Shown here: positions 4,196 through 63,549 of the stretch, piece after piece
Position numbering within the stretch: the first letter of the stretch is position 1
Layout of the letters: every line of letters begins with the position of its first letter
Sequence record: PX880100.1
DNA length: 64,000 nt
DNA from: a phage
Reading direction: 5' to 3' (one strand)
Notes under the pieces: generated by a model
The model's database searches: none
Told to the model about the DNA's origin: nothing
The model's input: the letters and a program-made list of their open reading frames with translations, nothing else
Translations under genes and position numbers: made by a program

Positions 4196-4222
4196 AAGGA
4201 GAGCTTCGGCTCTCCTTTTTTA
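4196..4222 (+). terminator. rho-independent terminator after the major capsid gene
   Basis: 9-bp GC-rich stem AAGGAGAGC/GCTCTCCTT with TTCG loop followed by TTTTTTATT. Confidence 0.75.
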
Positions 4223-4235
4223 TTGGGAAAAATAA

Positions 4236-4748
4236 ATGCAAATAATCACAGCTGAAGACTATAGATTATACGGCGGGTTAAAACGACCTGAACTAGAATC
4301 TGGAGTAGAAATGATGATTACTGCTGCCAATGCGCTGATTACTAGCCTTTTAGGTATGGATGATGCTGATGCGGTAGACCAGTTAATCAATACAAAACCT
4401 ACTCGTAAAAAATACTTCTTAAGTTCTCCCTCGGCTACTTCAGTAACCAAAATGACTATTAATGATAAGGAGATAGATCCCGAACAGTATAAGTTATACT
4501 CTGATGGGGTTATACTTCTTAAATTTAGTCCTCCAGAAGGTTATATGGATGTAGAGTACACACAAGGTGGATTTAACCCAATTCCTGAAGATCTCAAACT
4601 TGCAGCATGTATGCTAGTAGATCATTGGCATAAACAGGATTACCGTCAAGCTAAAACAATTGGCGGAGAAACAGTTACTTTTAATAATACTAAGTCTGGT
4701 ATTCCAGAGCATATTCGTACTATTATTGAAGTTTACAGGAGAGTATAA
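4236..4748 (+). CDS. head completion / head-tail connector protein (170 aa, putative)
   Basis: Position between major capsid and tail tube genes; co-oriented and tightly packed (ATGA overlap with next ORF). No motif evidence. Confidence 0.4.
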   Translation: MQIITAEDYRLYGGLKRPELESGVEMMITAANALITSLLGMDDADAVDQLINTKPTRKKYFLSSPSATSVTKMTINDKEIDPEQYKLYSDGVILLKFSPPEGYMDVEYTQGGFNPIPEDLKLAACMLVDHWHKQDYRQAKTIGGETVTFNNTKSGIPEHIRTIIEVYRRV

Positions 4749-5518: not shown

Positions 5519-6004
5519 ATGGATCATAGAACAAGTATTGCACAAGCTCTGGTTGACCGTATATCTAAACAGTTGGATGGTTCTCAACCTGACGAATATT
5601 TTAATAACCTATATGGAAACGTTTCTCGTCAAACTTATAAATTTGAGGAAATACGAGAGTTTCCTTATGTGGCAGTTCATATCGGAACTGAAACTGGGCA
5701 GTATCTTCCTTCGGGCCAACAGTGGATGTTTTTAGAACTTCCAATCCTGGTGTACGATAAAGAGAAAACAGACATTCAAGAGCAACTTGAAAAACTCGTA
5801 GCGGATATAAAAACCGTTATTGACACAGGTGGAAATTTAGAATATACTGTTAGTAAACCTAATGGATCGACCTTCCCATGTGAGGCAACTGATATGATCA
5901 TTACATCAGTTAGTACAGATGAGGGTCTACTGGCCCCATATGGTTTAGCAGAAATAAATGTAACAGTGAGGTATCAGCCTCCACGTAGGTCACTTCGCAG
6001 ATAA
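5519..6004 (+). CDS. tail terminator protein (161 aa, putative, T5 p142-like)
   Basis: Immediately upstream of the tail tube gene; length consistent with the T5 tail terminator as I recall it. Confidence 0.4.
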   Translation: MDHRTSIAQALVDRISKQLDGSQPDEYFNNLYGNVSRQTYKFEEIREFPYVAVHIGTETGQYLPSGQQWMFLELPILVYDKEKTDIQEQLEKLVADIKTVIDTGGNLEYTVSKPNGSTFPCEATDMIITSVSTDEGLLAPYGLAEINVTVRYQPPRRSLRR

Positions 6005-6030
6005 GTTACAGATTAGGAGAAAATAACTAA

Positions 6031-7437
6031 ATGTCTTTACAACTATTACGTAATACTCGAATCTTCGTGTCTACGGTTAAGACTGGTCATAATAAGACCA
6101 ACACGCAAGAGATTCTAGTTCAGGATGATATTTCTTGGGGTCAGGACAGTAACTCAACAGATATTACTGTTAATGAAGCTGGTCCGCGTCCAACTCGTGG
6201 CTCTAAACGTTTTAACGACTCTTTAAACGCGGCTGAGTGGAGTTTCTCTACTTATATCCTGCCATATAAAGATAAAACTACTAACAAACAGATTGTCCCT
6301 GACTATATGTTATGGCATGCTCTTTCTAGTGGTAAAGCTCTTAACCTAGAAGGCGATACAGGAGCACATAATAACGAAACCAATTTTATGGTTAACTTTA
6401 AAGATAACGCGTACCACGAACTAGCAATGCTGCATATCTACATCCTGACTGACAAAGCATGGAGTTACATCGACTCTTGCCAGATCAACCAGGCAGAAGT
6501 TAACGTTGATATTGAGGATATTGGTCGTGTAACTTGGTCAGGTAATGGTAACCAGCTTATTCCTTTGGATGAGCAACCATTTGACCCGGATACTGTAGGT
6601 ATTGATGATGAAACTTATATGACTATTCAGAGTTCTTATATCAAGAACAAATTGACTATCCTGAAAATTAAGGATATGGATTCTGATAAGGCATATGATA
6701 TCCCTATTACTGGGGGTACTTTCACCATTAATAACAATATTACGTACCTAACCCCCAATATTATGTCCCGTGTAAATATTCCGATCGGTTCATTTACTGG
6801 TGCGTTTGAACTAACTGGTTCACTAACTGCCTATCTAAATGATAAATCTCTTGGTTCTATGGAACTGTACAAAGATCTTATCAAAACCTTGAAGGTAGTT
6901 AACAAGTTTGAAATCGCACTTATCCTTGGTGGTGAGTATGATGATGAACGCCCAGCAGCTGTATTAGTTGCTAAACAGGCGCATGTTAACATTCCTACTA
7001 TTGAGACTGATGATGTACTTGGTACTTCAGTAGAGTTTAAAGCTATTCCTACAGATCTGGATACTGGTGATGAAGGTTATCTTGGTTTCTCTAACAAGTA
7101 TACTAAAACCACTGTGGCTAATCTGATTACTACAGGAGATGGCGCTAAAGCTCCACCAAAACTAGTTGAATCAATCACAGTTAAATCTGCTGGTAATGCT
7201 ACTTCAGTACAGAACAGTAATACTCTACAGATGTCTGTTGAAGTAACTCCGCCAGATGCTACTAATAGTGCTGTAACTTGGTCTATTTCTAGTGGTGATG
7301 CAGCTACAATTGATCCAGAATCTGGTTTATTAACTGCGGACACTACTAAGACAGGTTCTATTACTGTCAAAGCTGTAGCTAAAGACGGTTCTGGTGTAGA
7401 AGGTACTAAGAGCATTACAGTTACTGCTGGTGGCTAA
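6031..7437 (+). CDS. major tail tube protein with C-terminal Ig-like (Big_2-type) domain (T5 pb6-like, 468 aa)
   Basis: Length close to T5 pb6 (about 464 aa); C-terminal segment SITVKSAGNATSVQNSNTLQMSVEVTPPDATNSAVTWSISSGDAATIDPESGLLTA resembles a bacterial Ig-like domain; RBS AGGAGA upstream. Confidence 0.8.
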   Translation: MSLQLLRNTRIFVSTVKTGHNKTNTQEILVQDDISWGQDSNSTDITVNEAGPRPTRGSKRFNDSLNAAEWSFSTYILPYKDKTTNKQIVPDYMLWHALSSGKALNLEGDTGAHNNETNFMVNFKDNAYHELAMLHIYILTDKAWSYIDSCQINQAEVNVDIEDIGRVTWSGNGNQLIPLDEQPFDPDTVGIDDETYMTIQSSYIKNKLTILKIKDMDSDKAYDIPITGGTFTINNNITYLTPNIMSRVNIPIGSFTGAFELTGSLTAYLNDKSLGSMELYKDLIKTLKVVNKFEIALILGGEYDDERPAAVLVAKQAHVNIPTIETDDVLGTSVEFKAIPTDLDTGDEGYLGFSNKYTKTTVANLITTGDGAKAPPKLVESITVKSAGNATSVQNSNTLQMSVEVTPPDATNSAVTWSISSGDAATIDPESGLLTADTTKTGSITVKAVAKDGSGVEGTKSITVTAGG

Positions 7438-9207: not shown

Positions 9208-9238
9208 GGCTCTGGGTGATTTGCCCAGAGCCTTTTTT
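9208..9238 (+). terminator. rho-independent terminator-like hairpin upstream of the tape measure gene
   Basis: Stem GGCTCTGGG/CCCAGAGCC with 7-nt loop followed by TTTTTT. Confidence 0.6.
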
Positions 9239-9255
9239 ATTGGGAAAAATAAAAC

Positions 9256-12943: not shown

Positions 12944-12970
12944 GGAGGACTTTGAGTCCTCCTTTTCTTT
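12944..12970 (+). terminator. rho-independent terminator after the tape measure gene
   Basis: 8-bp stem GGAGGACT/AGTCCTCC with 3-nt loop followed by TTTTCTTT. Confidence 0.7.
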
Positions 12971-12989
12971 ATGGAAAAATAAAAATTTC

Positions 12990-13018
12990 TTGATAAAATT
13001 TTCTAATACTATTATAAT
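12990..13018 (+). promoter_or_regulatory. sigma70-type promoter upstream of the distal tail protein gene
   Basis: TTGATA (12990-12995), 17-bp spacer, TATAAT (13013-13018); downstream RBS AAAGAGGAGAAATTAACT then ATG at 13046. Confidence 0.6.
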
Positions 13019-13045
13019 ATTGTTATTAAAGAGGAGAAATTAACT

Positions 13046-29840: not shown

Positions 29841-30614
29841 TTAGTCGTCCAGATCGCTTGCAGCTTCTGTGTCAATACCTTTCTGGGAGCCTGCATTGCT
29901 ATTACCAGATTTGGCATCATCATCTTTATTCTCACGACCCTCCATGAAGGCTTGAATTGCTTCTTTCTGCTCTTCATAGGTAGGAACCGGATAGGTTTGT
30001 TCCAGAGAAGGAACTTTTTCGAACTTAATGATGTCGCCATCTTCATCACACATAGCTTCACCGATCAGATCTACGTCTGCAGCATATTGCTTAGATTCTG
30101 CACTGTTAGGATCTTGCAGCTTAATCTGGAACTGCATAGCAGCAATCTGCTGTACATCATACTCAGTATCGAAACCTTTACCTTTTTTCTCGATAGAAAT
30201 ATCAATATCAAACGGAGTTGCCAGATTCAACTGCTTCATGATAGACTGGATGCCTTTCAGAATCGTAGCCTTGACTTCCATTACTTTCAGTTTGTTATCA
30301 GAACGGTCGATAACAAAAGCGATATAGTTTTTCTTCGGTTTCAGCGGAACACGATTACCATCTTTATCCAGCTCTTTCTCGAAGAAGCCCATCTCATGAA
30401 CCGGATCAGCTTTACCACGAACAAAGCTCTCTTTGTCACGGTTAAAACGGAGACATTCGAAAGGAGCTACATTACCTTCTTTATTAGTCAGCCAATAGAC
30501 ATAACGTGGAAGAACACCAGAAACGATACGAACACGGGTGATACCGTTGTTGAACTTCAGGAATTCGATTTTATCGTTAGAACCGCCAGTAGTTTCGCCC
30601 CAAGACTTAGCCAT
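29841..30614 (-). CDS. putative single-stranded DNA-binding protein (257 aa)
   Basis: Sits in the replication gene cluster; acidic C-terminal tail (DTEAASDLDD) as in phage and bacterial SSBs. No fold-level confirmation. Confidence 0.4.
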   Translation of the reverse strand: MAKSWGETTGGSNDKIEFLKFNNGITRVRIVSGVLPRYVYWLTNKEGNVAPFECLRFNRDKESFVRGKADPVHEMGFFEKELDKDGNRVPLKPKKNYIAFVIDRSDNKLKVMEVKATILKGIQSIMKQLNLATPFDIDISIEKKGKGFDTEYDVQQIAAMQFQIKLQDPNSAESKQYAADVDLIGEAMCDEDGDIIKFEKVPSLEQTYPVPTYEEQKEAIQAFMEGRENKDDDAKSGNSNAGSQKGIDTEAASDLDD

Positions 30615-30891
30615 ATTTTATTTCCTCTTTAAAGATTAATTTCGATTTGTTAATTGCGATTAGTGGGTTAGTGTCGATTACTAAACGTGGTATCCATACT
30701 GGAACATATTGTATGTCCAAACTAGGATCGTTTGTAAACTTGTATTCGGCATAATTTCGTAGACTTAAAATTCCTAGATATTCTGCCAGTTGTCTATTAG
30801 ACAATTTATTTGGATTATCAACTATTGTTGATTCATTCAAAATGAATGAAGAACCGACCAATAATTGGTGAGCATCAGGCTCTGTAAGCAT
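30607..30891 (-). CDS. hypothetical protein (94 aa)
   Basis: First ORF downstream of the tandem promoters at 30999-31128; ATG at 30891. Confidence 0.3.
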   Translation of the reverse strand: MLTEPDAHQLLVGSSFILNESTIVDNPNKLSNRQLAEYLGILSLRNYAEYKFTNDPSLDIQYVPVWIPRLVIDTNPLIAINKSKLIFKEEIKYG

Positions 30892-30998
30892 TCTTTTGAA
30901 TAGCTTAATAATTAGGTCGGAATTTCCTCTAGCTAGTAAGTATAGCTTTTCATAATCGAAGAATTTAATTTTTGTTTTCTCCTCGAATTTATGTATAT

Positions 30999-31028
30999 AT
31001 TATACTAGATTTCGAGAGAATTTAGCAA
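30999..31028 (-). promoter_or_regulatory. sigma70-type promoter (copy 2 of a tandem pair)
   Basis: Minus strand: TTGCTA, 18-bp spacer, TATAAT, then leader ATATACATAAATTCGAGGAG. Confidence 0.55.
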
Positions 31029-31099
31029 CTAAAATTTTTATTTTTCTGCTTCGGACTTTCTTATCAATCCGAAACTTTCTCTCTCAAATTTATGTATAT

Positions 31100-31128
31100 A
31101 TTATACATCATTTATGAGCTGTTGCCAA
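31100..31128 (-). promoter_or_regulatory. sigma70-type promoter (copy 1 of a tandem pair)
   Basis: Minus strand: TTGGCA, 17-bp spacer, TATAAT, then leader ATATACATAAATTTGAGAGAG; the -35 lies in the last codons of the helicase gene. Confidence 0.5.
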
Positions 31129-39553: not shown

Positions 39554-39583
39554 CAAATTTCTTCCTTATCAATTTATATAGAT

Positions 39584-39612
39584 ATTATAGCAAGTATTTA
39601 AGCATTTAGCAA
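39584..39612 (-). promoter_or_regulatory. sigma70-type promoter between the two ligase genes
   Basis: Minus strand: TTGCTA, 17-bp spacer, TATAAT. Confidence 0.55.
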
Positions 39613-39755: not shown

Positions 39756-40730
39756 TTAATCGTATACTCGTTCTACTATGCATGGGATTACACCACCAGC
39801 ACGAATCACTCGAATCTGGCAACCGATCTCTAGATCAAGAGAGTTAATATAATCAACGTTATTAAGAGTCGCTTTAACAATTGTAGCATCATCAATAATT
39901 ACTGGTTCAAAATAACCTACTGGAGTTACTTTACCAGAAGCCCCTACCTGCCATTCAACTTTAGTAAGAGTTGTAATCTCGCCTTCTTCATCCTCTTTAA
40001 TGGCGAATGCTCCACGAGGGAATTTATTAGTCCAGCCTTCACGGAAGAATTTGTTGTTGTCATTAATACGAACAACTTTACCGTCCGTCGGAATCCATTT
40101 AAAAAAGGAACGCACATTAACAACTGTTAAGAAGTTCTCATTCTCTAGCCAAAGCATATCTTTTAAATATGCTTCTGTAATACCTACAGATTCAGCAGAA
40201 CACTGGATACCGTATGCAACGAAGATTAAGCCACCTTCCCCGATACGTTGTACGAAATCATCGCTATCTTTGAGGTTAATAGCACCAGAGGCAAAGTTAC
40301 GTTTATTTTCTACTTCTTTTGTAATTAGAACTTCACCAGTGATTTGAGTAGGTACTTTTTGGGAAATCTTTTTAGGGATGTTCAGCAATCTTACGTTGCT
40401 TGTGACATCATTTCCCAGAATACCGTTACCACGAGTTAATGCTTGAACAAATTCACCGTTAATATATAATAGAGAAATTGCACAACCATCTAACTTATCT
40501 GTTTCTACCTGACCTAAAGGATTAAATGGTGGTTTATCCCCACGATTATAATAAACTTTCTGTAAAGAATACATACGGTACAGATGTGGAATATCACCCT
40601 TAGGCCCGATCTCTTCTTCTAATGGGAAGCGTTTTACCAGGCAATCATACTCCTCATCAGAGATTAAAGACATGCCTTGATAATATGCTTCTTGACAACG
40701 CTTAATAAAGCCTTTTACATTATTCATCAT
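39756..40730 (-). CDS. ligA: NAD-dependent DNA ligase, N-terminal adenylation subunit (324 aa)
   Basis: KxDG adenylation motif (ETDKLDGCAISLLY) and OB-fold region; separate ORF from the C-terminal subunit, with about 200 bp of promoter-containing spacer between them. Confidence 0.8.
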   Translation of the reverse strand: MMNNVKGFIKRCQEAYYQGMSLISDEEYDCLVKRFPLEEEIGPKGDIPHLYRMYSLQKVYYNRGDKPPFNPLGQVETDKLDGCAISLLYINGEFVQALTRGNGILGNDVTSNVRLLNIPKKISQKVPTQITGEVLITKEVENKRNFASGAINLKDSDDFVQRIGEGGLIFVAYGIQCSAESVGITEAYLKDMLWLENENFLTVVNVRSFFKWIPTDGKVVRINDNNKFFREGWTNKFPRGAFAIKEDEEGEITTLTKVEWQVGASGKVTPVGYFEPVIIDDATIVKATLNNVDYINSLDLEIGCQIRVIRAGGVIPCIVERVYD

Positions 40731-40920
40731 CGGCGATTTCCATCTTGAGTTCTTTATTATATTGTGTAACCATATCCATCAAATCAGCAGATTCTTTCAG
40801 AAACGAATCTTTGTACGCCTTTTGATTTACTGTGCCTATGCTATCTTGATAATTAATACGTGCTGTGGAAAGTAGATTAAGTTTTGCTTGAATCTTGGGA
40901 AGTGTTACTGTCATAGCCAT
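40720..40920 (-). CDS. hypothetical protein (66 aa)
   Basis: ATG at 40920 preceded by RBS GAGAGGA and the promoter at 40950-40978; overlaps the ligA start. Confidence 0.35.
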   Translation of the reverse strand: MAMTVTLPKIQAKLNLLSTARINYQDSIGTVNQKAYKDSFLKESADLMDMVTQYNKELKMEIADDE

Positions 40921-40949
40921 GATTGATCCTCTCATTAATTTATATAAAT

Positions 40950-40978
40950 ATTATATAACAAAACTGAGTTGAAAGCAA
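40950..40978 (-). promoter_or_regulatory. sigma70-type promoter
   Basis: Minus strand: TTGCTT, 17-bp spacer, TATAAT, then leader ATTTATATAAATTAATGAGAGGA. Confidence 0.6.
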
Positions 40979-40987
40979 ATACATTTA

Positions 40988-41021
40988 TAAAGAAAAAGCC
41001 AAGAACTAGGCATTCTTGGCT
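40988..41021 (-). terminator. rho-independent terminator at the 3' end of the PC4-like gene
   Basis: 9-bp stem AGCCAAGAA/TTCTTGGCT overlapping the stop codon, followed on the minus strand by TTTTTCTTT. Confidence 0.6.
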
Positions 41022-41314
41022 TTTAGTTCTTCAGCTCGTTTCTGTACTTCATGTAAAACCTCAGATTCACTAAGAATCTGTGTAAACGCATAGAAAAGCT
41101 GTGATGTTGTTTCTAGGGTGTAAGGAAAAGAGAAGCCAGATTTCGTTGGAAACCATTCATCATTAATATCAAGAAGCCAGTAACGAATACCCATGTATAG
41201 ATTCCCACGAAATTCAGATACTGTTAATCTTACTTGTTCCCCCTCCTTCTCCCAAAGTATGATGGACTGGTCATCAACGTGTCCTTCATAGTTTTGATTT
41301 ACCTGTTCGCTCAT
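41006..41314 (-). CDS. PC4/Sub1-like ssDNA-binding protein (102 aa)
   Basis: Central segment ILWEKEGEQVRLTVSEFRGNLYMGIRYWLLDINDEWFPTKSGFSFP resembles the PC4 coactivator ssDNA-binding fold; a PC4-like protein has been described in phage T5. Confidence 0.5.
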   Translation of the reverse strand: MSEQVNQNYEGHVDDQSIILWEKEGEQVRLTVSEFRGNLYMGIRYWLLDINDEWFPTKSGFSFPYTLETTSQLFYAFTQILSESEVLHEVQKRAEELKAKNA

Positions 41315-41364: not shown

Positions 41365-41661
41365 TTATCGGCCTACTGGAGAAGCACGATCTAACTCTGA
41401 TTGGAGGCTAGTCACACGACGGACTTTCTCGACAGGAATAAAACGGAAGCTATCATTAGTACGAGAGAAGACAAGGATTTCATCATCTTTCGCTTTACGG
41501 ATACGTTCGCGTTTAATACGCTCAGCCAGATATTTATCTTGGGCCGGATCAAATTCCATTGTACCCTGAAGGTACGTGGTTCCTTTCTGACGAAGTTTCT
41601 CGTAATGAAGATAAAACTCACCAAATTTTTCGCACTGTGCAATAATTTCAGCTTTAGTCAT
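41365..41661 (-). CDS. hypothetical protein (98 aa)
   Basis: ATG at 41661; followed by a hairpin (AGCCCC/GGGGCT) plus T-run terminator at about 41322-41345. Confidence 0.35.
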   Translation of the reverse strand: MTKAEIIAQCEKFGEFYLHYEKLRQKGTTYLQGTMEFDPAQDKYLAERIKRERIRKAKDDEILVFSRTNDSFRFIPVEKVRRVTSLQSELDRASPVGR

Positions 41662-42109: not shown

Positions 42110-42166
42110 ATTTTATATTTCCTTAATTAAGAATTAAACAGAATAGTTCTTTCAAACTATGAGAAT

Positions 42167-42195
42167 ATTATATCAAGAATTATAGGATTAAGCAA
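42167..42195 (-). promoter_or_regulatory. sigma70-type promoter
   Basis: Minus strand: TTGCTT, 17-bp spacer, TATAAT. Confidence 0.6.
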
Positions 42196-42212: not shown

Positions 42213-42488
42213 TTACTCCACCAGGCCAACAGCGAGCATATCATCAATGCTGGCAATCTCCCAATCGTCGGCAATAGCTTCGCATACTGTTAATGTAACA
42301 ATCTCACTATAGGGATAATTACCAGCTACCCAGGTATGTTGGGTAACTACATCCGAATCAGTATCCAAAGTTAATAATACTAAACCGTTATTATCGTTAT
42401 TCCAACTTTTACGATACACGGTTTTTGTTTCACCATCTTTGAGCAAATCTGTTAGTTTACTCACGGCGTTTTCCTTTTTCTTTATCAA
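42213..42488 (-). CDS. hypothetical protein (83-91 aa)
   Basis: Track start is TTG; an in-frame GTG at 42464 with RBS AAGGAAA looks more plausible. Confidence 0.3.
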   Translation of the reverse strand: MIKKKENAVSKLTDLLKDGETKTVYRKSWNNDNNGLVLLTLDTDSDVVTQHTWVAGNYPYSEIVTLTVCEAIADDWEIASIDDMLAVGLVE

Positions 42489-43161
42489 GTTTCAGGGCAG
42501 CCTTAACAGCTTCGTTAATCAACGTAATAATTTCTTCACGAGTCCATTTATACCCCAGAGACTTTACATCAACCCCTAGCTTTTCCAGATGTTTAACAGA
42601 GGCCAACTCGTAATTCATATAATGAACGTTCTGTTGTTTGCCTTCTGATAAAAGCCATACACGGTAGCAACCAACAGGATTATCCATTGCTTTTTTGATT
42701 TCACCGATACACTGGTATCCAGGAACCCAAACAAGCTCACCAACTGCAAATTCTTCTGCTACAGCATCATCAGGAATAATCGGAGGATTCAATGGATCTA
42801 CAATATCATTCAAACGAAGTAGAGCACCGTAGCGTTCCAGAACAGATTTAACCATTGCTACAGAGCGATAATTACGATCGGCAATTTCTTCAAAAGAATC
42901 ACCAGATAAATACTGCTCAATAACGTTGGCTAACTCGATGCCTTCAATAAGTGTGCCACGTTTCTTTTTCTTCATTTCGGCAACTTGAATCTGGCGGTCT
43001 TGCCATTCTTCAATCATCCTTTCCATAGTTGGATTGGATGATACGCCGAGCATTTCACATGCTGCTTTCTTAGTACCACCGTTCTCCAGATGCTCTATAA
43101 CCTTTTTAAAGACTTCATCCGGAATTTCATGGATATGTTTCTTTCTACGAGAACCAGCCAT
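42457..43161 (-). CDS. putative HTH transcriptional regulator (234 aa)
   Basis: Two helix-turn-helix-like segments (TKKAACEMLGVSSNPTMERM; SFEEIADRNYRSVAMVKSVLERYG); ATG at 43161 preceded by RBS GAGAGGAG and the PN25-like promoter. Confidence 0.4.
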   Translation of the reverse strand: MAGSRRKKHIHEIPDEVFKKVIEHLENGGTKKAACEMLGVSSNPTMERMIEEWQDRQIQVAEMKKKKRGTLIEGIELANVIEQYLSGDSFEEIADRNYRSVAMVKSVLERYGALLRLNDIVDPLNPPIIPDDAVAEEFAVGELVWVPGYQCIGEIKKAMDNPVGCYRVWLLSEGKQQNVHYMNYELASVKHLEKLGVDVKSLGYKWTREEIITLINEAVKAALKLDKEKGKRRE

Positions 43162-43192
43162 ATTTAAACTCCTCTCTCAAATTTATGAATCT

Positions 43193-43221
43193 ATTATACA
43201 GAAATTTTTTGCACTATGCAA
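43193..43221 (-). promoter_or_regulatory. strong sigma70 promoter closely resembling the phage T5 PN25 promoter
   Basis: Minus strand reads AAAAATTTATTTGCATAGTGCAAAAAATTTCTGTATAATAGATTCATAAATTTGAGAGAGGAG: TTGCAT, 17-bp spacer, TATAAT, with the PN25-type AT-rich upstream block and CATAAATTTGAGAGAGGAG leader. Confidence 0.7.
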
Positions 43222-43229
43222 ATAAATTT

Positions 43230-43496
43230 TTACGATTCCTTGAGTAAAGAAGCAAGTTCAGCATAGACTTTATCTAACTCAAAGCCGATGCGAAGAGACA
43301 CGTTTGTTTTCCGTTGTTTAAGTAACCACTCGGATATGTTAGGGATGCCAGCTAATCTATGCGGTACCACCCTACATAGCTTTTCCGAAGTGTCGTAAAC
43401 AGGAACTTTACGTTCCTTTACTGGGAACTTCCTTGTTTCCCATTTTTTATTCTTCACTGTCATTTCTAGCACCCAGCTCTGCCATTGCTTCATCAT
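43230..43496 (-). CDS. hypothetical protein (88 aa)
   Basis: Start moved to ATG 43496 (MMKQWQ...) with GGAGA upstream; overlaps the 3' end of the large helicase gene. Confidence 0.3.
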   Translation of the reverse strand: MMKQWQSWVLEMTVKNKKWETRKFPVKERKVPVYDTSEKLCRVVPHRLAGIPNISEWLLKQRKTNVSLRIGFELDKVYAELASLLKES

Positions 43497-46236
43497 GCAT
43501 ATGTTTCTCCTCATCAGTCATAAACTTATACGGGATTGGCATACACTCGATTTTACAATAGGTTCTGTACCAGTCTACAATATTCTCCGTGTTCATATCC
43601 TTACCAATACCCATCATACCAAGATACATTCTTGCATATTTTGGGTTAGCACTCTGACCTGTTTTAAGGAAGAAATCTTTCTTCTTACCTTTCAGAGCTT
43701 CTATGAATGGTTTGATAGTGACATTTGAACACTTCTTAATATCTTCCCAGAACATCTCGTGCATCTTATGGAAGAATGCAGCTCGATCATTCGGTTTATC
43801 CTTGATATATTGTTCAACATGCTCAACTGTTACATCTTTAATAGACTCAAGATGATAGTAGCGAACAAGAAGTAGTTTAGCTTCATACGCATCTGCATGG
43901 CGTGGAGCACAATAATCAGGAGTTGAATACAAAATAGCTTTGATTCGCTCTTCCGTATATTCCTTCCCAGCACCTTCGATAGTTCCCCAGCTTTCACTGA
44001 AAATATCAATAGTTGCACCCTGATCAAGCAAGTAATAACGTAAAGTACTAGTATAATTCCTAGACTCCAGCTCCCTGCGACGTGCGTATAATTGCTGTGC
44101 TAACTCCAGCCAACCTTCATCAATGTTATATTGCTCAGAACCTGCGGAGAATCCACTCGTAGATTTATCAATAAAATAATAAATGTTCTGAGCGCCACGG
44201 TCGCGCCTGATTGCTTGGAAACGCATGTTTGGCGCTTGGTTGCTGGTTCTAGTAATAACGAATACGTTATCAAAATAGTTGAAATCAACACCACTAGTTA
44301 CGGATGGGCTACATAATAAGCAATCAATTTGTTGGTCAATTAGCTCATTAGTTGTGTAATCCAGAATACGTCGAATATCCACATCAGATGTGGAGTTTGA
44401 GTGGATTTCCTTAACTAACGCACCCGTATTACGACGCAGCGCCATGCCCTTCTCATTCAGTTCATCAGGACCACAATCAGATACCAGAATAGATTTCTCA
44501 CCCATTTCTAGAGAAGTCTGAAGTGCAACCCAAATACTGGATTCATCCGGGAACTCATAAGCATGAGCTTTTGACAGCATCTTACGGTGATGATTATAAA
44601 ATGCTACTGGTTTATCAAACTCAATCAAAGAGCCATATGCTTCAATTGTTTCTGCACTAATATCCCCATCAGATAATATAATAATTTTTGCAGTTGCAAG
44701 AATGTCCCGAAGAACCTGAATACATTCACGACGTTGTTTAACAACCGGGGCGAATAATAGGTCATTCATTACAGCATCACATTCATCGATAAAGATTGCA
44801 TCAATTTGACCAATAAAACTCTTGAACTTATGCAAAGAGTGAATAGTTGTGGACATACGGTCAATAGCACCACGCTTAAAATTAAGCATATCTACAGACT
44901 TATCATATTGTCCTGCACTGAATTTCTTAGCATTTGAAGACACCAGCGCTCTAGTATTGGTAATTGCTAAGAAATTACCTTTAATAACTCCCGAATCTAA
45001 CCAACGCACAACCGCCGTAGTTTTACCTGTACCTAGACTTGCTTTTACAAAAGTCATATAACCTTCTGGTGGCACAGTATTTAATTTCAAGAAGTTATCA
45101 GTTTCTAGAGAATTAGTTTCTAGCTTTTTAAGTGGAATACCTTTTAAAACATCTGGTATATCACGTTTAGAATTATTAACAAATGCTTTCAGAGCCTGTT
45201 TACGACCATTATTAAAGTAATCTTGAATATTGCGACTATTATCTTTAGTTGCAATATATTCTGATAAGGCTGGACGAATTTCTTTTTCTAGCCATGCAAA
45301 ATCAACACCATCCTCCAAAGCTCTATGATAGAGTTTAGGGATAATACGTAGATACACCCCATCCTCAGCTTCTTCTAGTTCGCTGATAGTTTCCTCTACT
45401 TTATCAGAGGCAGCTTTTTTACCTTTAATTTGATCGAGTAAAGAGTAAAACTCCTCCTTAAACTCACCTCTAGTTGTTTCATAGTCAACCAGATTATTGG
45501 GTAAATTTACTTTAGAACCCTTAACAAATACCAGACGTGAAGCACCCTCCGCTTTAAACGGATCTACTATACCATCAATAAATAACGGATCTGCAAAATA
45601 ATGGAGCTGTACGGAAGAGTAATAAGCTAAGTCGGCAATATCAAAGCCATACTTTTGTCTACTACTTTCGTTGATAGATGTAAATAAGAATTTGATTTGA
45701 CCCTGAGTTACTTTAACATTAGATTCTAGTATTAAGTGCATTCGGATACCTGGTTTTAGCCCAGCCGAAGACGATGCATGAGCAATAAACCCTGCATCAA
45801 GAGGAAACATATCCTCACTAATACTATTTAACATTCTAATAATATGTCGAGCCATGCCAACAAGATCAAACTTGTTACAACCACCTGTATCTACAATACC
45901 ATCCACGTCCATTGCAATTATATGACTTGGGTTAGATACATTAAAGTTGCCCTTCTTACGTCGCACATTATTTTTAGGTGCAAGACATCGACCTCGTACC
46001 GCAACGATATGAGGGTCAGACGTTAAACGTCTCATAAGAGGAAGCATTTCTACTAGGGTTTGAGGATCAACTTCATCAATTACATCAAACTTGAAGGGCA
46101 TTGAAGCTGGTTTACCTTCAGGATGCTTTGAGGAAAATCTTTTAGCAAAAAGATAGTCTTCTGCTTTAACTTCTCGCCAATTGCCTGTGGCTAAATCGCG
46201 ATGAAATCCTGCATGACCTTGTAGGATTGAGAACAC
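43447..46236 (-). CDS. large P-loop NTPase / putative replication-initiation helicase (929 aa from GTG 46236; track ORF 955 aa from TTG 46314)
   Basis: Walker A FVKASLGTGKTT and Walker B/DExx AIFIDECD in the middle of the protein; N-terminal ~400 aa carries acidic clusters (IIAMDVDGIVDTGG) that could be a primase-polymerase-type domain. GTG 46236 is preceded by AGGAG at a 7-nt spacing. Confidence 0.55.
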   Translation of the reverse strand: MFSILQGHAGFHRDLATGNWREVKAEDYLFAKRFSSKHPEGKPASMPFKFDVIDEVDPQTLVEMLPLMRRLTSDPHIVAVRGRCLAPKNNVRRKKGNFNVSNPSHIIAMDVDGIVDTGGCNKFDLVGMARHIIRMLNSISEDMFPLDAGFIAHASSSAGLKPGIRMHLILESNVKVTQGQIKFLFTSINESSRQKYGFDIADLAYYSSVQLHYFADPLFIDGIVDPFKAEGASRLVFVKGSKVNLPNNLVDYETTRGEFKEEFYSLLDQIKGKKAASDKVEETISELEEAEDGVYLRIIPKLYHRALEDGVDFAWLEKEIRPALSEYIATKDNSRNIQDYFNNGRKQALKAFVNNSKRDIPDVLKGIPLKKLETNSLETDNFLKLNTVPPEGYMTFVKASLGTGKTTAVVRWLDSGVIKGNFLAITNTRALVSSNAKKFSAGQYDKSVDMLNFKRGAIDRMSTTIHSLHKFKSFIGQIDAIFIDECDAVMNDLLFAPVVKQRRECIQVLRDILATAKIIILSDGDISAETIEAYGSLIEFDKPVAFYNHHRKMLSKAHAYEFPDESSIWVALQTSLEMGEKSILVSDCGPDELNEKGMALRRNTGALVKEIHSNSTSDVDIRRILDYTTNELIDQQIDCLLCSPSVTSGVDFNYFDNVFVITRTSNQAPNMRFQAIRRDRGAQNIYYFIDKSTSGFSAGSEQYNIDEGWLELAQQLYARRRELESRNYTSTLRYYLLDQGATIDIFSESWGTIEGAGKEYTEERIKAILYSTPDYCAPRHADAYEAKLLLVRYYHLESIKDVTVEHVEQYIKDKPNDRAAFFHKMHEMFWEDIKKCSNVTIKPFIEALKGKKKDFFLKTGQSANPKYARMYLGMMGIGKDMNTENIVDWYRTYCKIECMPIPYKFMTDEEKHMHDEAMAELGARNDSEE

Positions 46237-46735
46237 AACAATACTCCTGTGTTGGAAATGAAATAAGTTTTCTTTAGGACTATTCAGAAAGAATAGAACA
46301 ACTGTTACTGTCAATTTCTCAACAAATTAATTGCAAATACTGAAGTGGGGTGGCAACTTCCACTTTCACGCTACACTGCCGCTTCACTATACCGCACAAA
46401 TCCTTGAGGATGGCCGCTAAGCCAGATTTGCTCACCTAATGCTTCATGTACTAGCTCATACTAGATGTAGTATACCTTACGTCATCACTTCTCAGAGTTT
46501 TTCACTCTTCCCGTCTCACTTCACAACCACCTCACACTAGGTTGCTTCGAGGCCTTACCAGGGTTCCTACGGGATGTAGATCGCTAAGTATTCTATTAAT
46601 TATTTGTTTAAAAACCAACACGTAACAGTTAAAACAACCCTTAATGGGGCAGCCTAACTGTTCCGTATCGCGGATTGTAAACAAGAAAAATTAGCAAAAT
46701 CAATTTTTACTAATGTCTCTCGATTCAATATAAAT
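46237..46735 (-). other. long ORF-free 5' leader / intergenic region upstream of the large helicase gene
   Basis: About 500 nt between the promoter at 46736-46764 and the helicase start contain only 2-3 codon ORFs and are GC-richer than flanking DNA, with purine-rich GTGA/AGTGA repeats on the transcribed strand. Confidence 0.5.
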
Positions 46736-46764
46736 ATTATATCAAGATTTTGGGCATCCTGCAA
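46736..46764 (-). promoter_or_regulatory. sigma70-type promoter
   Basis: Minus strand: TTGCAG, 17-bp spacer, TATAAT, with AAAATTTT upstream. Confidence 0.5.
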
Positions 46765-49932: not shown

Positions 49933-49960
49933 ATTTTTCTCCTCTCAAATTTATAAATCT

Positions 49961-49989
49961 ATTATATATAAATTTTTGGCTGAAAGCAA
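49961..49989 (-). promoter_or_regulatory. strong sigma70 promoter (PN25-type)
   Basis: Minus strand: TTGCTT, 17-bp spacer, TATAAT, then AGATTTATAAATTTGAGAGGAG leader. Confidence 0.65.
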
Positions 49990-50024
49990 ATAAAATAAAA
50001 GCCAGGTCGACTAGCAACCCGGCT
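49990..50024 (-). terminator. terminator-like hairpin after nrdD
   Basis: Minus strand: imperfect 7-bp stem AGCCGGG/CCTGGCT followed by TTTTATTTTATTT. Confidence 0.45.
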
Positions 50025-60293: not shown

Positions 60294-60322
60294 TTGCTAA
60301 ACGCTTCAAATTCTCGTATAAT
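60294..60322 (+). promoter_or_regulatory. sigma70-type promoter with conserved leader
   Basis: TTGCTA, 17-bp spacer, TATAAT, leader TTCATAAATTGATAAACAAAAAGGAAAACAAATA before ATG 60361. Confidence 0.6.
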
Positions 60323-60360
60323 ATACTTCATAAATTGATAAACAAAAAGGAAAACAAATA

Positions 60361-62164: not shown

Positions 62165-62193
62165 TTGCTTCCGGCCCCAAAATTCTGTATAAT
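62165..62193 (+). promoter_or_regulatory. sigma70-type promoter with conserved leader
   Basis: TTGCTT, 17-bp spacer, extended -10 TGTATAAT, leader TTCATAAATTTGAGAAAACAACAAAAGGAAAACAAAT before ATG 62234. Confidence 0.6.
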
Positions 62194-62233
62194 ATATTCA
62201 TAAATTTGAGAAAACAACAAAAGGAAAACAAAT

Positions 62234-62416
62234 ATGCCAGTATCTAAAAATGTTCGTAAAAATGGTAAGAAAGCTACTCGTAATCTGGGTATCCGTCGTA
62301 TGGCTGAACGTCAATCAGGTGTCCAGAAAATCTTTGATCTGCTAAATCGTGCTAATCCTAAAATTGATAACAGTAAAGATACTGTTCTGCGTACCTTACT
62401 GGCAATGGGTCTGTAA
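62234..62416 (+). CDS. small basic protein (60 aa)
   Basis: Lys/Arg-rich N-terminus; host-optimised codons; own promoter. Confidence 0.35.
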   Translation: MPVSKNVRKNGKKATRNLGIRRMAERQSGVQKIFDLLNRANPKIDNSKDTVLRTLLAMGL

Positions 62417-62468
62417 TAGACCAACTTTAAACAAATTCAAATCTTAAACTTCATATAAGGAAGAAACA

Positions 62469-63107
62469 ATGACCACTCGTATTTCTAAAACTCGTGCTCT
62501 GGCAACCATCAAATCTCTGGAAGCTAAAATCCGTAAAGCTACTGAACAACAGCTTCTGATCGCTGTTGGTGAAGGTAAGGATAAAAACCAGGTTGTAGTT
62601 GGCGCTGCAATCGAAGTAGCTGATCTGTCTACTCGTATTAAGACTGATTTCCAGTCTCTGCTGGATATGATGTCCCAGCGCGATCGTATCAAAGCTGCTC
62701 TGATTAAAAGCAATGCGGAAACAATCGTTGAGATTGGCTCTCGTAAGATGACTGTTGCGGAAGCAATTGAAGCTAAGCGTTCTATGGAACTTAAAGCTCA
62801 ACTGCTGGCTAACATGCGTAAGCAGTTCCATGCCGCTACAGTTAAGTTTAATGCGCAGAAAGCACAGTTTGATGCTAAATATGAGCGTTTGCAGGATAGC
62901 ATGGCTACCCGCGATAAGAAAACTTCCGAAGATGAAGTTAAAATGCAGCTCAACCTGCTGGAACTCAAGAATACTCCATTCTTGATTGATCCGCTGGAAC
63001 TGGAGAAGCTGATTAAGCAGCATGACGAGGAATACCAGGACTTTGCAACAAATGTTGACTTTGTTCTGTCCGAGTCTAACGCCTCTACCTTCATTGAAGT
63101 AGAGTAA
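62469..63107 (+). CDS. hypothetical alpha-helical protein (212 aa) with host-optimised codon usage
   Basis: RBS AAGGAAGAAAC before ATG 62469; helix-rich sequence; cgt/ctg-dominated codons. Confidence 0.45.
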   Translation: MTTRISKTRALATIKSLEAKIRKATEQQLLIAVGEGKDKNQVVVGAAIEVADLSTRIKTDFQSLLDMMSQRDRIKAALIKSNAETIVEIGSRKMTVAEAIEAKRSMELKAQLLANMRKQFHAATVKFNAQKAQFDAKYERLQDSMATRDKKTSEDEVKMQLNLLELKNTPFLIDPLELEKLIKQHDEEYQDFATNVDFVLSESNASTFIEVE

Positions 63108-63490: not shown

Positions 63491-63519
63491 TTGCTAATTT
63501 ATTAAGTTATCTGTATAAT
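63491..63519 (+). promoter_or_regulatory. sigma70-type promoter
   Basis: TTGCTA, 17-bp spacer, extended -10 TGTATAAT; RBS-like GAGG before ATG 63550. Confidence 0.6.
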
Positions 63520-63549
63520 ATATTTTTAAATTGATGAAACGAGGCTATT

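Follow-up and report, generated by a model that had tools for sequence, protein, structure and literature searches.

The site at 43165-43235 on the minus strand of sequence record PX880100.1 is, judged from its sequence and from the gene that follows it, the positional orthologue of the T5 promoter P-N25, upstream of gene D2. We put at roughly three in four the probability of the following reading: that a T5-like phage has its orthologue of PN25 here, and that its tight-binding sigma70 promoters carry an A/T- and purine-rich initial transcribed sequence (ITS) that aids promoter escape. Throughout, the window is the whole stretch of 64,000 nucleotides that was analysed.

The window is collinear with T5 (AY587007) from 42.5 to 105.9 kb, in reverse orientation and with a mean identity of 90.6%. 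The 2-kb stretch around the PN25 site is matched by 471 phage records (best identity, 97.6%), nearly all of them T5-like phages of Salmonella, Escherichia or Klebsiella. A 70-nt PN25 sequence matches T5 at 100%, on the feature annotated as "promoter P-N 25" directly upstream of D2 (AY543070, 63043-63117; in AY587007 also "putative early promoter T5P33"). Because the ORF at 42457-43161 is the D2 orthologue, the adjacent promoter is the orthologue of PN25. The preliminary description had called the copy at 43193-43221 nearly identical to PN25, and with good reason: there is no difference from T5 between about -17 and the ATG, through +1, the ITS and the Shine-Dalgarno sequence (SD), and the eight substitutions and one indel that separate the two all lie between -50 and -18. 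The two copies have in common the position upstream of D2, the A-tract, the 17-bp spacer and TATAAT; they differ in the -35 hexamer (TTGCAT here, TTGCTT in T5) and in the spacer (agtgcaaaaaatttc here, tcaggaaaatttttc in T5). The HNH homing endonuclease gene hegI, which in T5 lies upstream of PN25, between it and the origin-binding-protein gene, is missing from the window (43447-43514 here, corresponding to T5 62391-62886).

The orthology extends to the sibling promoters. For nine of ten promoters, the closest T5 copy is the positional orthologue, and over 30 nt six of the ten are identical and two are one position off. All coordinates given in the preliminary description, with their -35/-10 pairs, held on direct inspection of the window, and alignment with T5 identifies the named sites as orthologues of annotated T5 promoters, several with historical names (P-N25, P31A/B and P-H207). 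Promoters 40955, 49966, 62188 and 63514 are orthologues of annotated T5 promoters without names. The promoters 60317 and 62188, on the plus strand, have their -35 hexamers at 60294 and 62165. Besides corresponding by position to T5 promoters that are mapped or annotated, the window promoters fit the T5 early class in having a -35 TTGCT(T/A), a -10 TATAAT, 17 (rarely 18) bp spacing, an A-tract or A+T block around -43, an A/T-rich discriminator, and ATAAATT(T)GA from +1. The discriminator of the N25 copy is AGATT, the same as in T5. The discriminator consensus ATATT is common to all known T5 early promoters, and transcription from early promoters by the host RNA polymerase early in infection is known for T5 only (PMC7472727).

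Read on the minus strand from 43231 to 43159, the PN25 orthologue runs AAAAATTTAT-TTGCAT-(17 bp)-TATAAT-AGATTC-ATAAATTTGAGAGAGGAGTTTAAAT-ATG; its parts and the sibling promoters are listed in Table 1. We placed +1 at the A at 43186, following PMC7472727, where TATAATAGATTCAT covers -12 to +2 of N25. An extended -10 (TGn) was considered and rejected: the TG at -14/-13 adjoins TATAAT, one base out of register with -15/-14, and the promoter scan reported no TG before the second hexamer.

Table 1. Parts of the PN25 orthologue and its sibling promoters in the window
Feature	Position	Strand	Remarks
A/T block, -45 to -36, AAAAATTTAT	43222-43231	-	Overlaps TAA stop of upstream 94-aa ORF
-35 hexamer TTGCAT (T5: TTGCTT)	43216-43221	-	Window sequence compared with T5
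17-bp spacer	43199-43215	-	Variable between relatives, at least 3 haplotypes; nucleotide diversity 0.234
-10 hexamer TATAAT	43193-43198	-	Invariant in 31 sequences
A/T-rich discriminator AGATTC, -6 to -1	43187-43192	-	19/20 window promoters have A at -6, 16/20 have T at -5
ITS +1 to +20, ATAAATTTGAGAGAGGAGTT ("downstream region", DSR)	43167-43186	-	Same as T5 N25; diversity at +1 to +10, 0.019
Shine-Dalgarno GAGGAG, within ITS	43169-43174	-	Start codon at 43159-43161
D2 orthologue, 234 aa, assigned to PN25 promoter	42457-43161	-	Orthology; weak HTH_28 match below Pfam cut-off
"repeat c copy 5" orthologue, upstream of T5.100	49942-49989	-	ITS ATAAATTTGAGAGGAG; start codon +23
-35/-10 of 49966 promoter	49989-49984/49966-49961	-	
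P-N26 orthologue (-10 at 42172)	42148-42195	-	Variant ITS ATAGTTTGAAAG; start codon +52
"repeat b copy 4" orthologue (ligA promoter)	40931-40978	-	ITS ATAAATTAATGAGAGGA
-35/-10 of ligA promoter	40978-40973/40955-40950	-	
P-K28a orthologue (39589; "repeat b copy 5", upstream of ligB)	39565-39612	-	ITS ATAAATTGATAAGGAAG; absent from the preliminary description
P31A orthologue ("repeat c copy 7")	31081-31128	-	ITS ATAAATTTGAGAGAGAAAG; no nearby start codon
-35/-10 of P31A orthologue	31128-31123/31105-31100	-	
P31B orthologue	30980-31028	-	18-bp spacer; ITS ATAAATTCGAGGAG; orphan SD-like run (GAGGAG)
-35/-10 of P31B orthologue	31028-31023/31004-30999	-	
P-H207 orthologue (60317)	60294-60342	+	7-nt discriminator, then ATAAATTGATAAAC; SD only at +19
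"repeat c copy 4" orthologue (62188), upstream of T5.086	62165-62212	+	ITS ATAAATTTGAGAAAAC; SD only at +22
T5P23 orthologue (63514)	63491-63538	+	ITS variant TTAAATTGATG; absent from the preliminary description

About ten window promoters have TATAAT, an A/T-rich discriminator and then ATAAATT(T)GA from +1. A search of the window for TATAATNNNTNCATAAATT with up to two mismatches gave eight matches against 0.73 expected, and none of 100 shuffles reached eight, which bears out the proposal that early promoters share the -10 and a block downstream of it. What they share, however, is a variant block anchored to the -10; the literal 21-mer, TTCATAAATTTGAGAGAGGAG, has only two copies at up to three mismatches. 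The copies vary by substitutions and in the length of the GA run, so there is no single fixed 21-mer. The window has 29 ATAAATT heptamers and 99 TATAAT hexamers, and eight of the heptamers stand 6-7 nt past one of the hexamers; by chance we would expect about 0.07, on our own estimate. When repeats were sought de novo, the search recovered the promoter family as the largest repeat sets of the window (D1-D3, D5, I1-I6). The short leader alone, with mismatches allowed, is not enriched in the window (11 found, 11.9 expected); as the block is enriched when tied to the -10, the signal is linkage to the -10. A generic sigma70 consensus scan proved uninformative in so A/T-rich a window (58 sites, 58.6 expected).

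Position by position, the family can be followed in an alignment of 20 window promoters, taken from a -35/-10 scan on hexamer scores and inspection of the upstream A/T block; a rule-based upstream definition alone recovers 17 of the 20. Upstream, 16-19 of the 20 have A at the positions from -45 to -42 and 19 have T at -40; the stretch from -45 to -40 reads A4-5T in 16-19 of them. Past the -10, the counts out of 20 are 19 for A at -6, 16 for T at -5, 16 for T at +2, 13 for A at +3, 16 for A at +4, 15 for T at +7, 13 for G at +9, 14 for A at +12 and 13 for A at +13.

Could the block simply be the ribosome-binding site (RBS) consensus? This was one of the two conditions under which the proposal would have failed, and the layout of the copies excludes it. 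ATAAATT(T)GA always begins at +1, 6-7 nt from the -10, and the SD lies anywhere from +7 to +37; the block is therefore not just an RBS consensus, and it has conserved positions beyond one. Start codons lie at +19 to +52 or are absent, with four promoters in the set having none nearby. Only some copies of the block continue into an RBS: those of N25, 49966, 40955 and 39589 lead straight into the SD, and at 62188 and 60317 the SD lies more than 10 nt past the block. The conserved block is thus more than an RBS consensus, and its anchor is the -10 and not the RBS.

The same stretch evolves slowly. From 46 loci with D2 relatives taken from IMG/VR, the closest 30 were aligned for the PN25, PN26 and K28a promoters; the ligA promoter, which is not followed by the same gene in every genome, was for that reason kept out of the diversity test. 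Polymorphic columns made up 2/30 of the ITS from +1 to +10, 7/36 of positions -12 to -1, 33/51 of the spacer and 231/300 of the third-codon positions of the downstream genes (Fisher tests: ITS against spacer, p=1.4e-7; ITS against third-codon positions, p=1.5e-14). For PN25 itself, nucleotide diversity at +1 to +10 was 0.019; the spacer reached 0.234 and third-codon positions 0.233. In these orthologous comparisons, the +1 to +10 block is under purifying selection. Differences specific to individual paralogues are maintained between the window phage and T5, and since the nearest T5 copy is the orthologue in nine of ten cases, the copies have been kept individually and not homogenised by gene conversion.

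The motif also reaches beyond close relatives. Klebsiella phage vB_Kpn_IME260 (ATAAATTCGAGAGAGGA; D2 protein 67% identical to that of the window) and Pectobacterium phage DU_PP_V (ATAAATTGAATAAGGA; 73% identical) have kept it at their D2 promoters, and neighbouring promoters in both loci carry it too. Loci with a D2 homologue of just 30-41% identity still have the A-tract, the -35 hexamer, TATAAT and an "ATA" discriminator, and have mostly lost the ITS motif. This fading of the motif while the rest of the promoter design persists counts against the escape reading.

The promoter family and its conserved leader are already known and annotated, and knowledge and tests of them go back to the 1980s. 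PN25 is among the most-used promoters in biotechnology and is a standard model for promoter escape; homology around +7 was reportedly described by Gentz & Bujard in 1985. In AY587007 they are entered under the names "repeat c copy 1-7" and "repeat b copy 1-5", whose extracted sequences are exactly the -10-to-+16 blocks. The T5 repeats c and b are TGTATAATA[TG]AT[TA][CT]ATAAATTTGAGAGAG and TATAATATTTATATAAATT[AG]ATGAG, on -14 to +16 of early promoters, and the T5 record gives them as repeats without a function. Window copies correspond one-to-one with T5 repeats c4, c5, c6, c7, b4 and b5, whereas the orthologues of P-H207 and P31B, both motif-bearing in the window, are absent from the T5 repeat lists. 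The find is therefore of little importance as a discovery, given that PN25 is well known and its repeat family is already in the T5 GenBank record. It is modestly useful to see, copy by copy and across about 30 relatives, that positions +1 to +10 change no faster than the -10 hexamer, without concerted evolution.

For the escape reading, the experimental ground is PN25. Open complexes at N25 are very stable, and escape is the rate-limiting step (PMC12464699). That source relates that replacement of +3 to +20 (antiDSR; Kammerer 1986) cut full-length RNA to about one-tenth and raised abortive products, and that 43 ITS variants of N25 (Hsu 2006) spanned an up to 25-fold range of productive efficiency. 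The leader swap that the preliminary description had proposed as a check has thus already been made for PN25, with the predicted outcome, output falling about ten-fold. The window ITS is, base for base, the N25 ITS of the Bujard/Hsu DSR/antiDSR system; those experiments concern PN25 only, whereas the window siblings carry variants such as ATAAATTGAT... and ATAGTTTGA...

Put together, the early region of the window would hold about 20 predicted promoters dependent on host sigma70, around ten of them built to one extended plan: an A-tract near -43, a -35 TTGCT(T/A), a 17-bp spacer, TATAAT, an A/T-rich discriminator, and then, in the transcribed part, ATAAATT(T)GA and a purine run. Because such promoters would bind RNA polymerase very tightly, initiation would be limited at promoter escape. 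The A/T- and purine-rich first 10-20 bp would act at the level of the DNA and nascent RNA, keeping abortive cycling low and letting the polymerase clear the promoter, and the purine run would serve also as the Shine-Dalgarno sequence in some copies. Promoter identity, orthology, position-specific conservation and purifying selection come from the present analysis; the role in escape comes from the literature on PN25, and we would extend it to the siblings by analogy. Changes that preserve composition (A to T or A to G, and the reverse) are nearly absent from +1 to +10 among the aligned relatives, so escape efficiency alone may not explain the exact sequence, and the pattern suggests that the ITS is under more sequence-specific constraint than A/T and purine composition would impose. 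Why the exact sequence is kept, when published ITS-swap data tie escape to general A/T- and purine-richness, is a modestly useful question. Also on the contrary side, a T-G step is conserved in the ITS, at +7/+8 or +8/+9; it resembles a motif that slows escape in other promoters when it lies at +5 to +7 (PMC5961368).

The block might instead act mainly in the RNA, as an unstructured A/U-rich 5' end (AUAAAUUUGA...) that aids ribosome or S1 loading or sets the lifetime of early mRNA. Folding of the first 60 nt of the transcripts is consistent with this, as they are mostly unstructured, with a pairing probability of at most 0.25 at +1 to +10 in most motif-bearing copies and leader folding z-scores around 0 or positive (the exceptions are the transcripts of P31A and of the 46741 promoter, which have strong hairpins), and the four promoters that run directly into an SD fit it as well. 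However, the block is kept at P31A, which has no translation start, at P31B, where the SD is an orphan and coordinate arithmetic puts the start of the next ORF (30607-30891) at about +102, and at 62188 and 60317, where the SD is at least 10 nt further on. In T5, the block of "repeat c copy 3" precedes a tRNA cluster; ARAGORN found no tRNAs in the window. The leaders have no common fold, and no Rfam covariance model matched anywhere in the 64 kb at the gathering score. PMC12464699 also has the antiDSR effect present in purified in vitro transcription. We consider an action mainly in the RNA unlikely. Of the two roles that the preliminary description had offered for the leader, selection on promoter escape is supported, selection from our comparisons and escape from the PN25 literature; the shared mRNA 5' element, for which neither a common fold nor an Rfam hit turned up, gains no support but may still exist.

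A different proposal is that the block and its A/T discriminator tag the early class, being read by a phage factor (e.g., gpT5.026 or D5) or producing an initial or sigma70-dependent pause, with a part in early shut-off. The mechanism by which early genes are shut off in T5-like phages is described as unknown; it is chiefly the discriminator that sets early promoters apart from late ones, and at N25 the binding of RNA polymerase to -5/+2 is weakened by gpT5.026, a protein with no strong effect in vitro (PMC7472727). In T5, TATAAT-N6/7-ATAAATT with up to one mismatch is found in 20 of 34 annotated early promoters but in none of the five pre-early and three late ones (p=0.004, on a comparison set of only eight non-early promoters), and 14 of the 34 early promoters are without it, a point that weighs against the escape reading. 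The invariance of the sequence also exceeds what composition alone requires. As for a pause, TAAATT at +2 to +7 agrees with TATAAT at four of six positions, including A at position 2 and T at position 6, and in this it resembles the sigma70-dependent promoter-proximal pause elements of lambda PR' and lacUV5, a -10-like hexamer in the early transcribed region; that likeness is one of sequence only. Against the tag, our literature search found no pausing data and no report of a sigma-dependent pause at N25, and an operator-like dyad was rejected, as by eye there are only the 3-bp arms TCA...TGA. An early-class tag of this kind seems to us quite improbable, and we give as little credit to the narrower version in which exact ATAAATT(T)GA is an early-class signal, through a phage factor or a pause built from TAAATT and the T-G step, that times early shut-off. 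Least of all do we expect that the leader is under no selection and that the likeness is due to recent duplication or gene conversion of promoter cassettes. AY587007 does annotate the copies simply as dispersed repeats, and mosaic breakpoints adjoin promoters. Yet nearest neighbours are orthologues, not paralogues, at nine of ten promoters, with no concerted evolution; in the cassettes themselves, divergence affects the spacer and the upstream flank and spares +1 to +10; and the motif persists down to 67-73% protein identity of the neighbouring gene. Duplication as the sole source of leader similarity was already disfavoured on these grounds, and escape remains our preferred reading of the block.

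Several smaller observations on the PN25 locus may help those annotating related genomes. The -35/spacer haplotype of the window holds a 5-bp inverted repeat at 43209-43221 (minus strand), TTGCA-TAG-TGCAA, which may be chance or operator-like; T5 reads TTGCTTTCAGGAA there, locus L027 has the same arms around another loop (TTGCA-TCC-TGCAA), and one arm is broken in L020 and L021. The GA run of the PN25 ITS differs in length among relatives (GAGAGAGAGGAG or GAGAGAGGAG; L004 and L007, about 5975-5990), and the change moves the SD by 2 nt relative to +1.

Early promoters of T4-type phages occur as repeated cassettes at module boundaries. The window is similar in having dispersed near-identical early promoters where gene content differs between relatives, but its copies have no associated stem-loop in common. 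At the ligA promoter, which in T5 stands directly before ligA, the window has an extra small ORF (40720-40935, minus strand), of 71 aa from the first ATG and more likely of 66 aa from the ATG at 40920; the 71-aa ORF had no Pfam match. The window and T5 sequences diverge right past the ITS and SD of this promoter, which thus marks a mosaic junction. At PN25, three relatives (L014, L019 and L027, around 5890-5960; window 43232-43260) have an unrelated upstream flank from near -46, at the edge of the A-tract, and this replacement is a second sign of promoters at module boundaries. Directly upstream of the 49966 and 40955 promoters are terminator-like hairpins (50000-50024 and 40994-41024, minus strand) whose T-run doubles as the upstream A/T block; the one at 50000-50024 corresponds to "repeat a" of the T5 record.

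Two transcripts begin with marked structure. Between P31A and P31B, at 31048-31075 (minus strand), the P31A transcript has a strong hairpin at +19 to +46 (GUUUCGGAUU...AGUCCGAAGC), and its first 60 nt have a minimum free energy of -14.0 and a z-score of -7.2. A canonical terminator was rejected for this hairpin, which has no U-run after it and no ORF nearby. Between the 46741 promoter, orthologue of T5P32, and the origin-binding-protein gene lie about 430 nt in which no ORF is convincing (46314-46741, minus strand). The first 56 nt of the transcript from this promoter fold into a long hairpin (z-score, -3.4), and the stretch may serve as a long structured leader, encode a small RNA or be related to an origin.

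In the late region, the promoter at 12990-13040 (plus strand) is the orthologue of the T5 "putative late promoter T5P39". Its ITS is without the early ATAAATT block, and its leader is ATTAAAGAGGAGAAATTAACTATGAGA, which we take to be the "RBSII" leader and first two codons of the pQE/pDS expression vectors. The sequence CCTTTT(T/C)T(T)ATTGGGAAAAATAAA occurs there in three copies (4214-4236, 9231-9253 and 12961-12983, plus strand), each after a G+C-rich hairpin; in two of the three an ATG follows at once, and the third continues into the late promoter at 13013. These copies look like terminator-plus-restart cassettes of late operons.

Two places in T5 itself should also be kept in mind. The pre-early terminal repeat of AY587007 has TATAAT-N6-ATAAATT at 5999-6034 (L050), with no promoter annotated in the record. 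At 41470-41508 (L003 13470-13508, minus strand), "repeat c copy 3" upstream of the tRNA genes has the ITS ATAAATTAGAGAG followed by its near-perfect complement, TCTCTAATTTAT, so that the transcript would start with a 5'-terminal hairpin.
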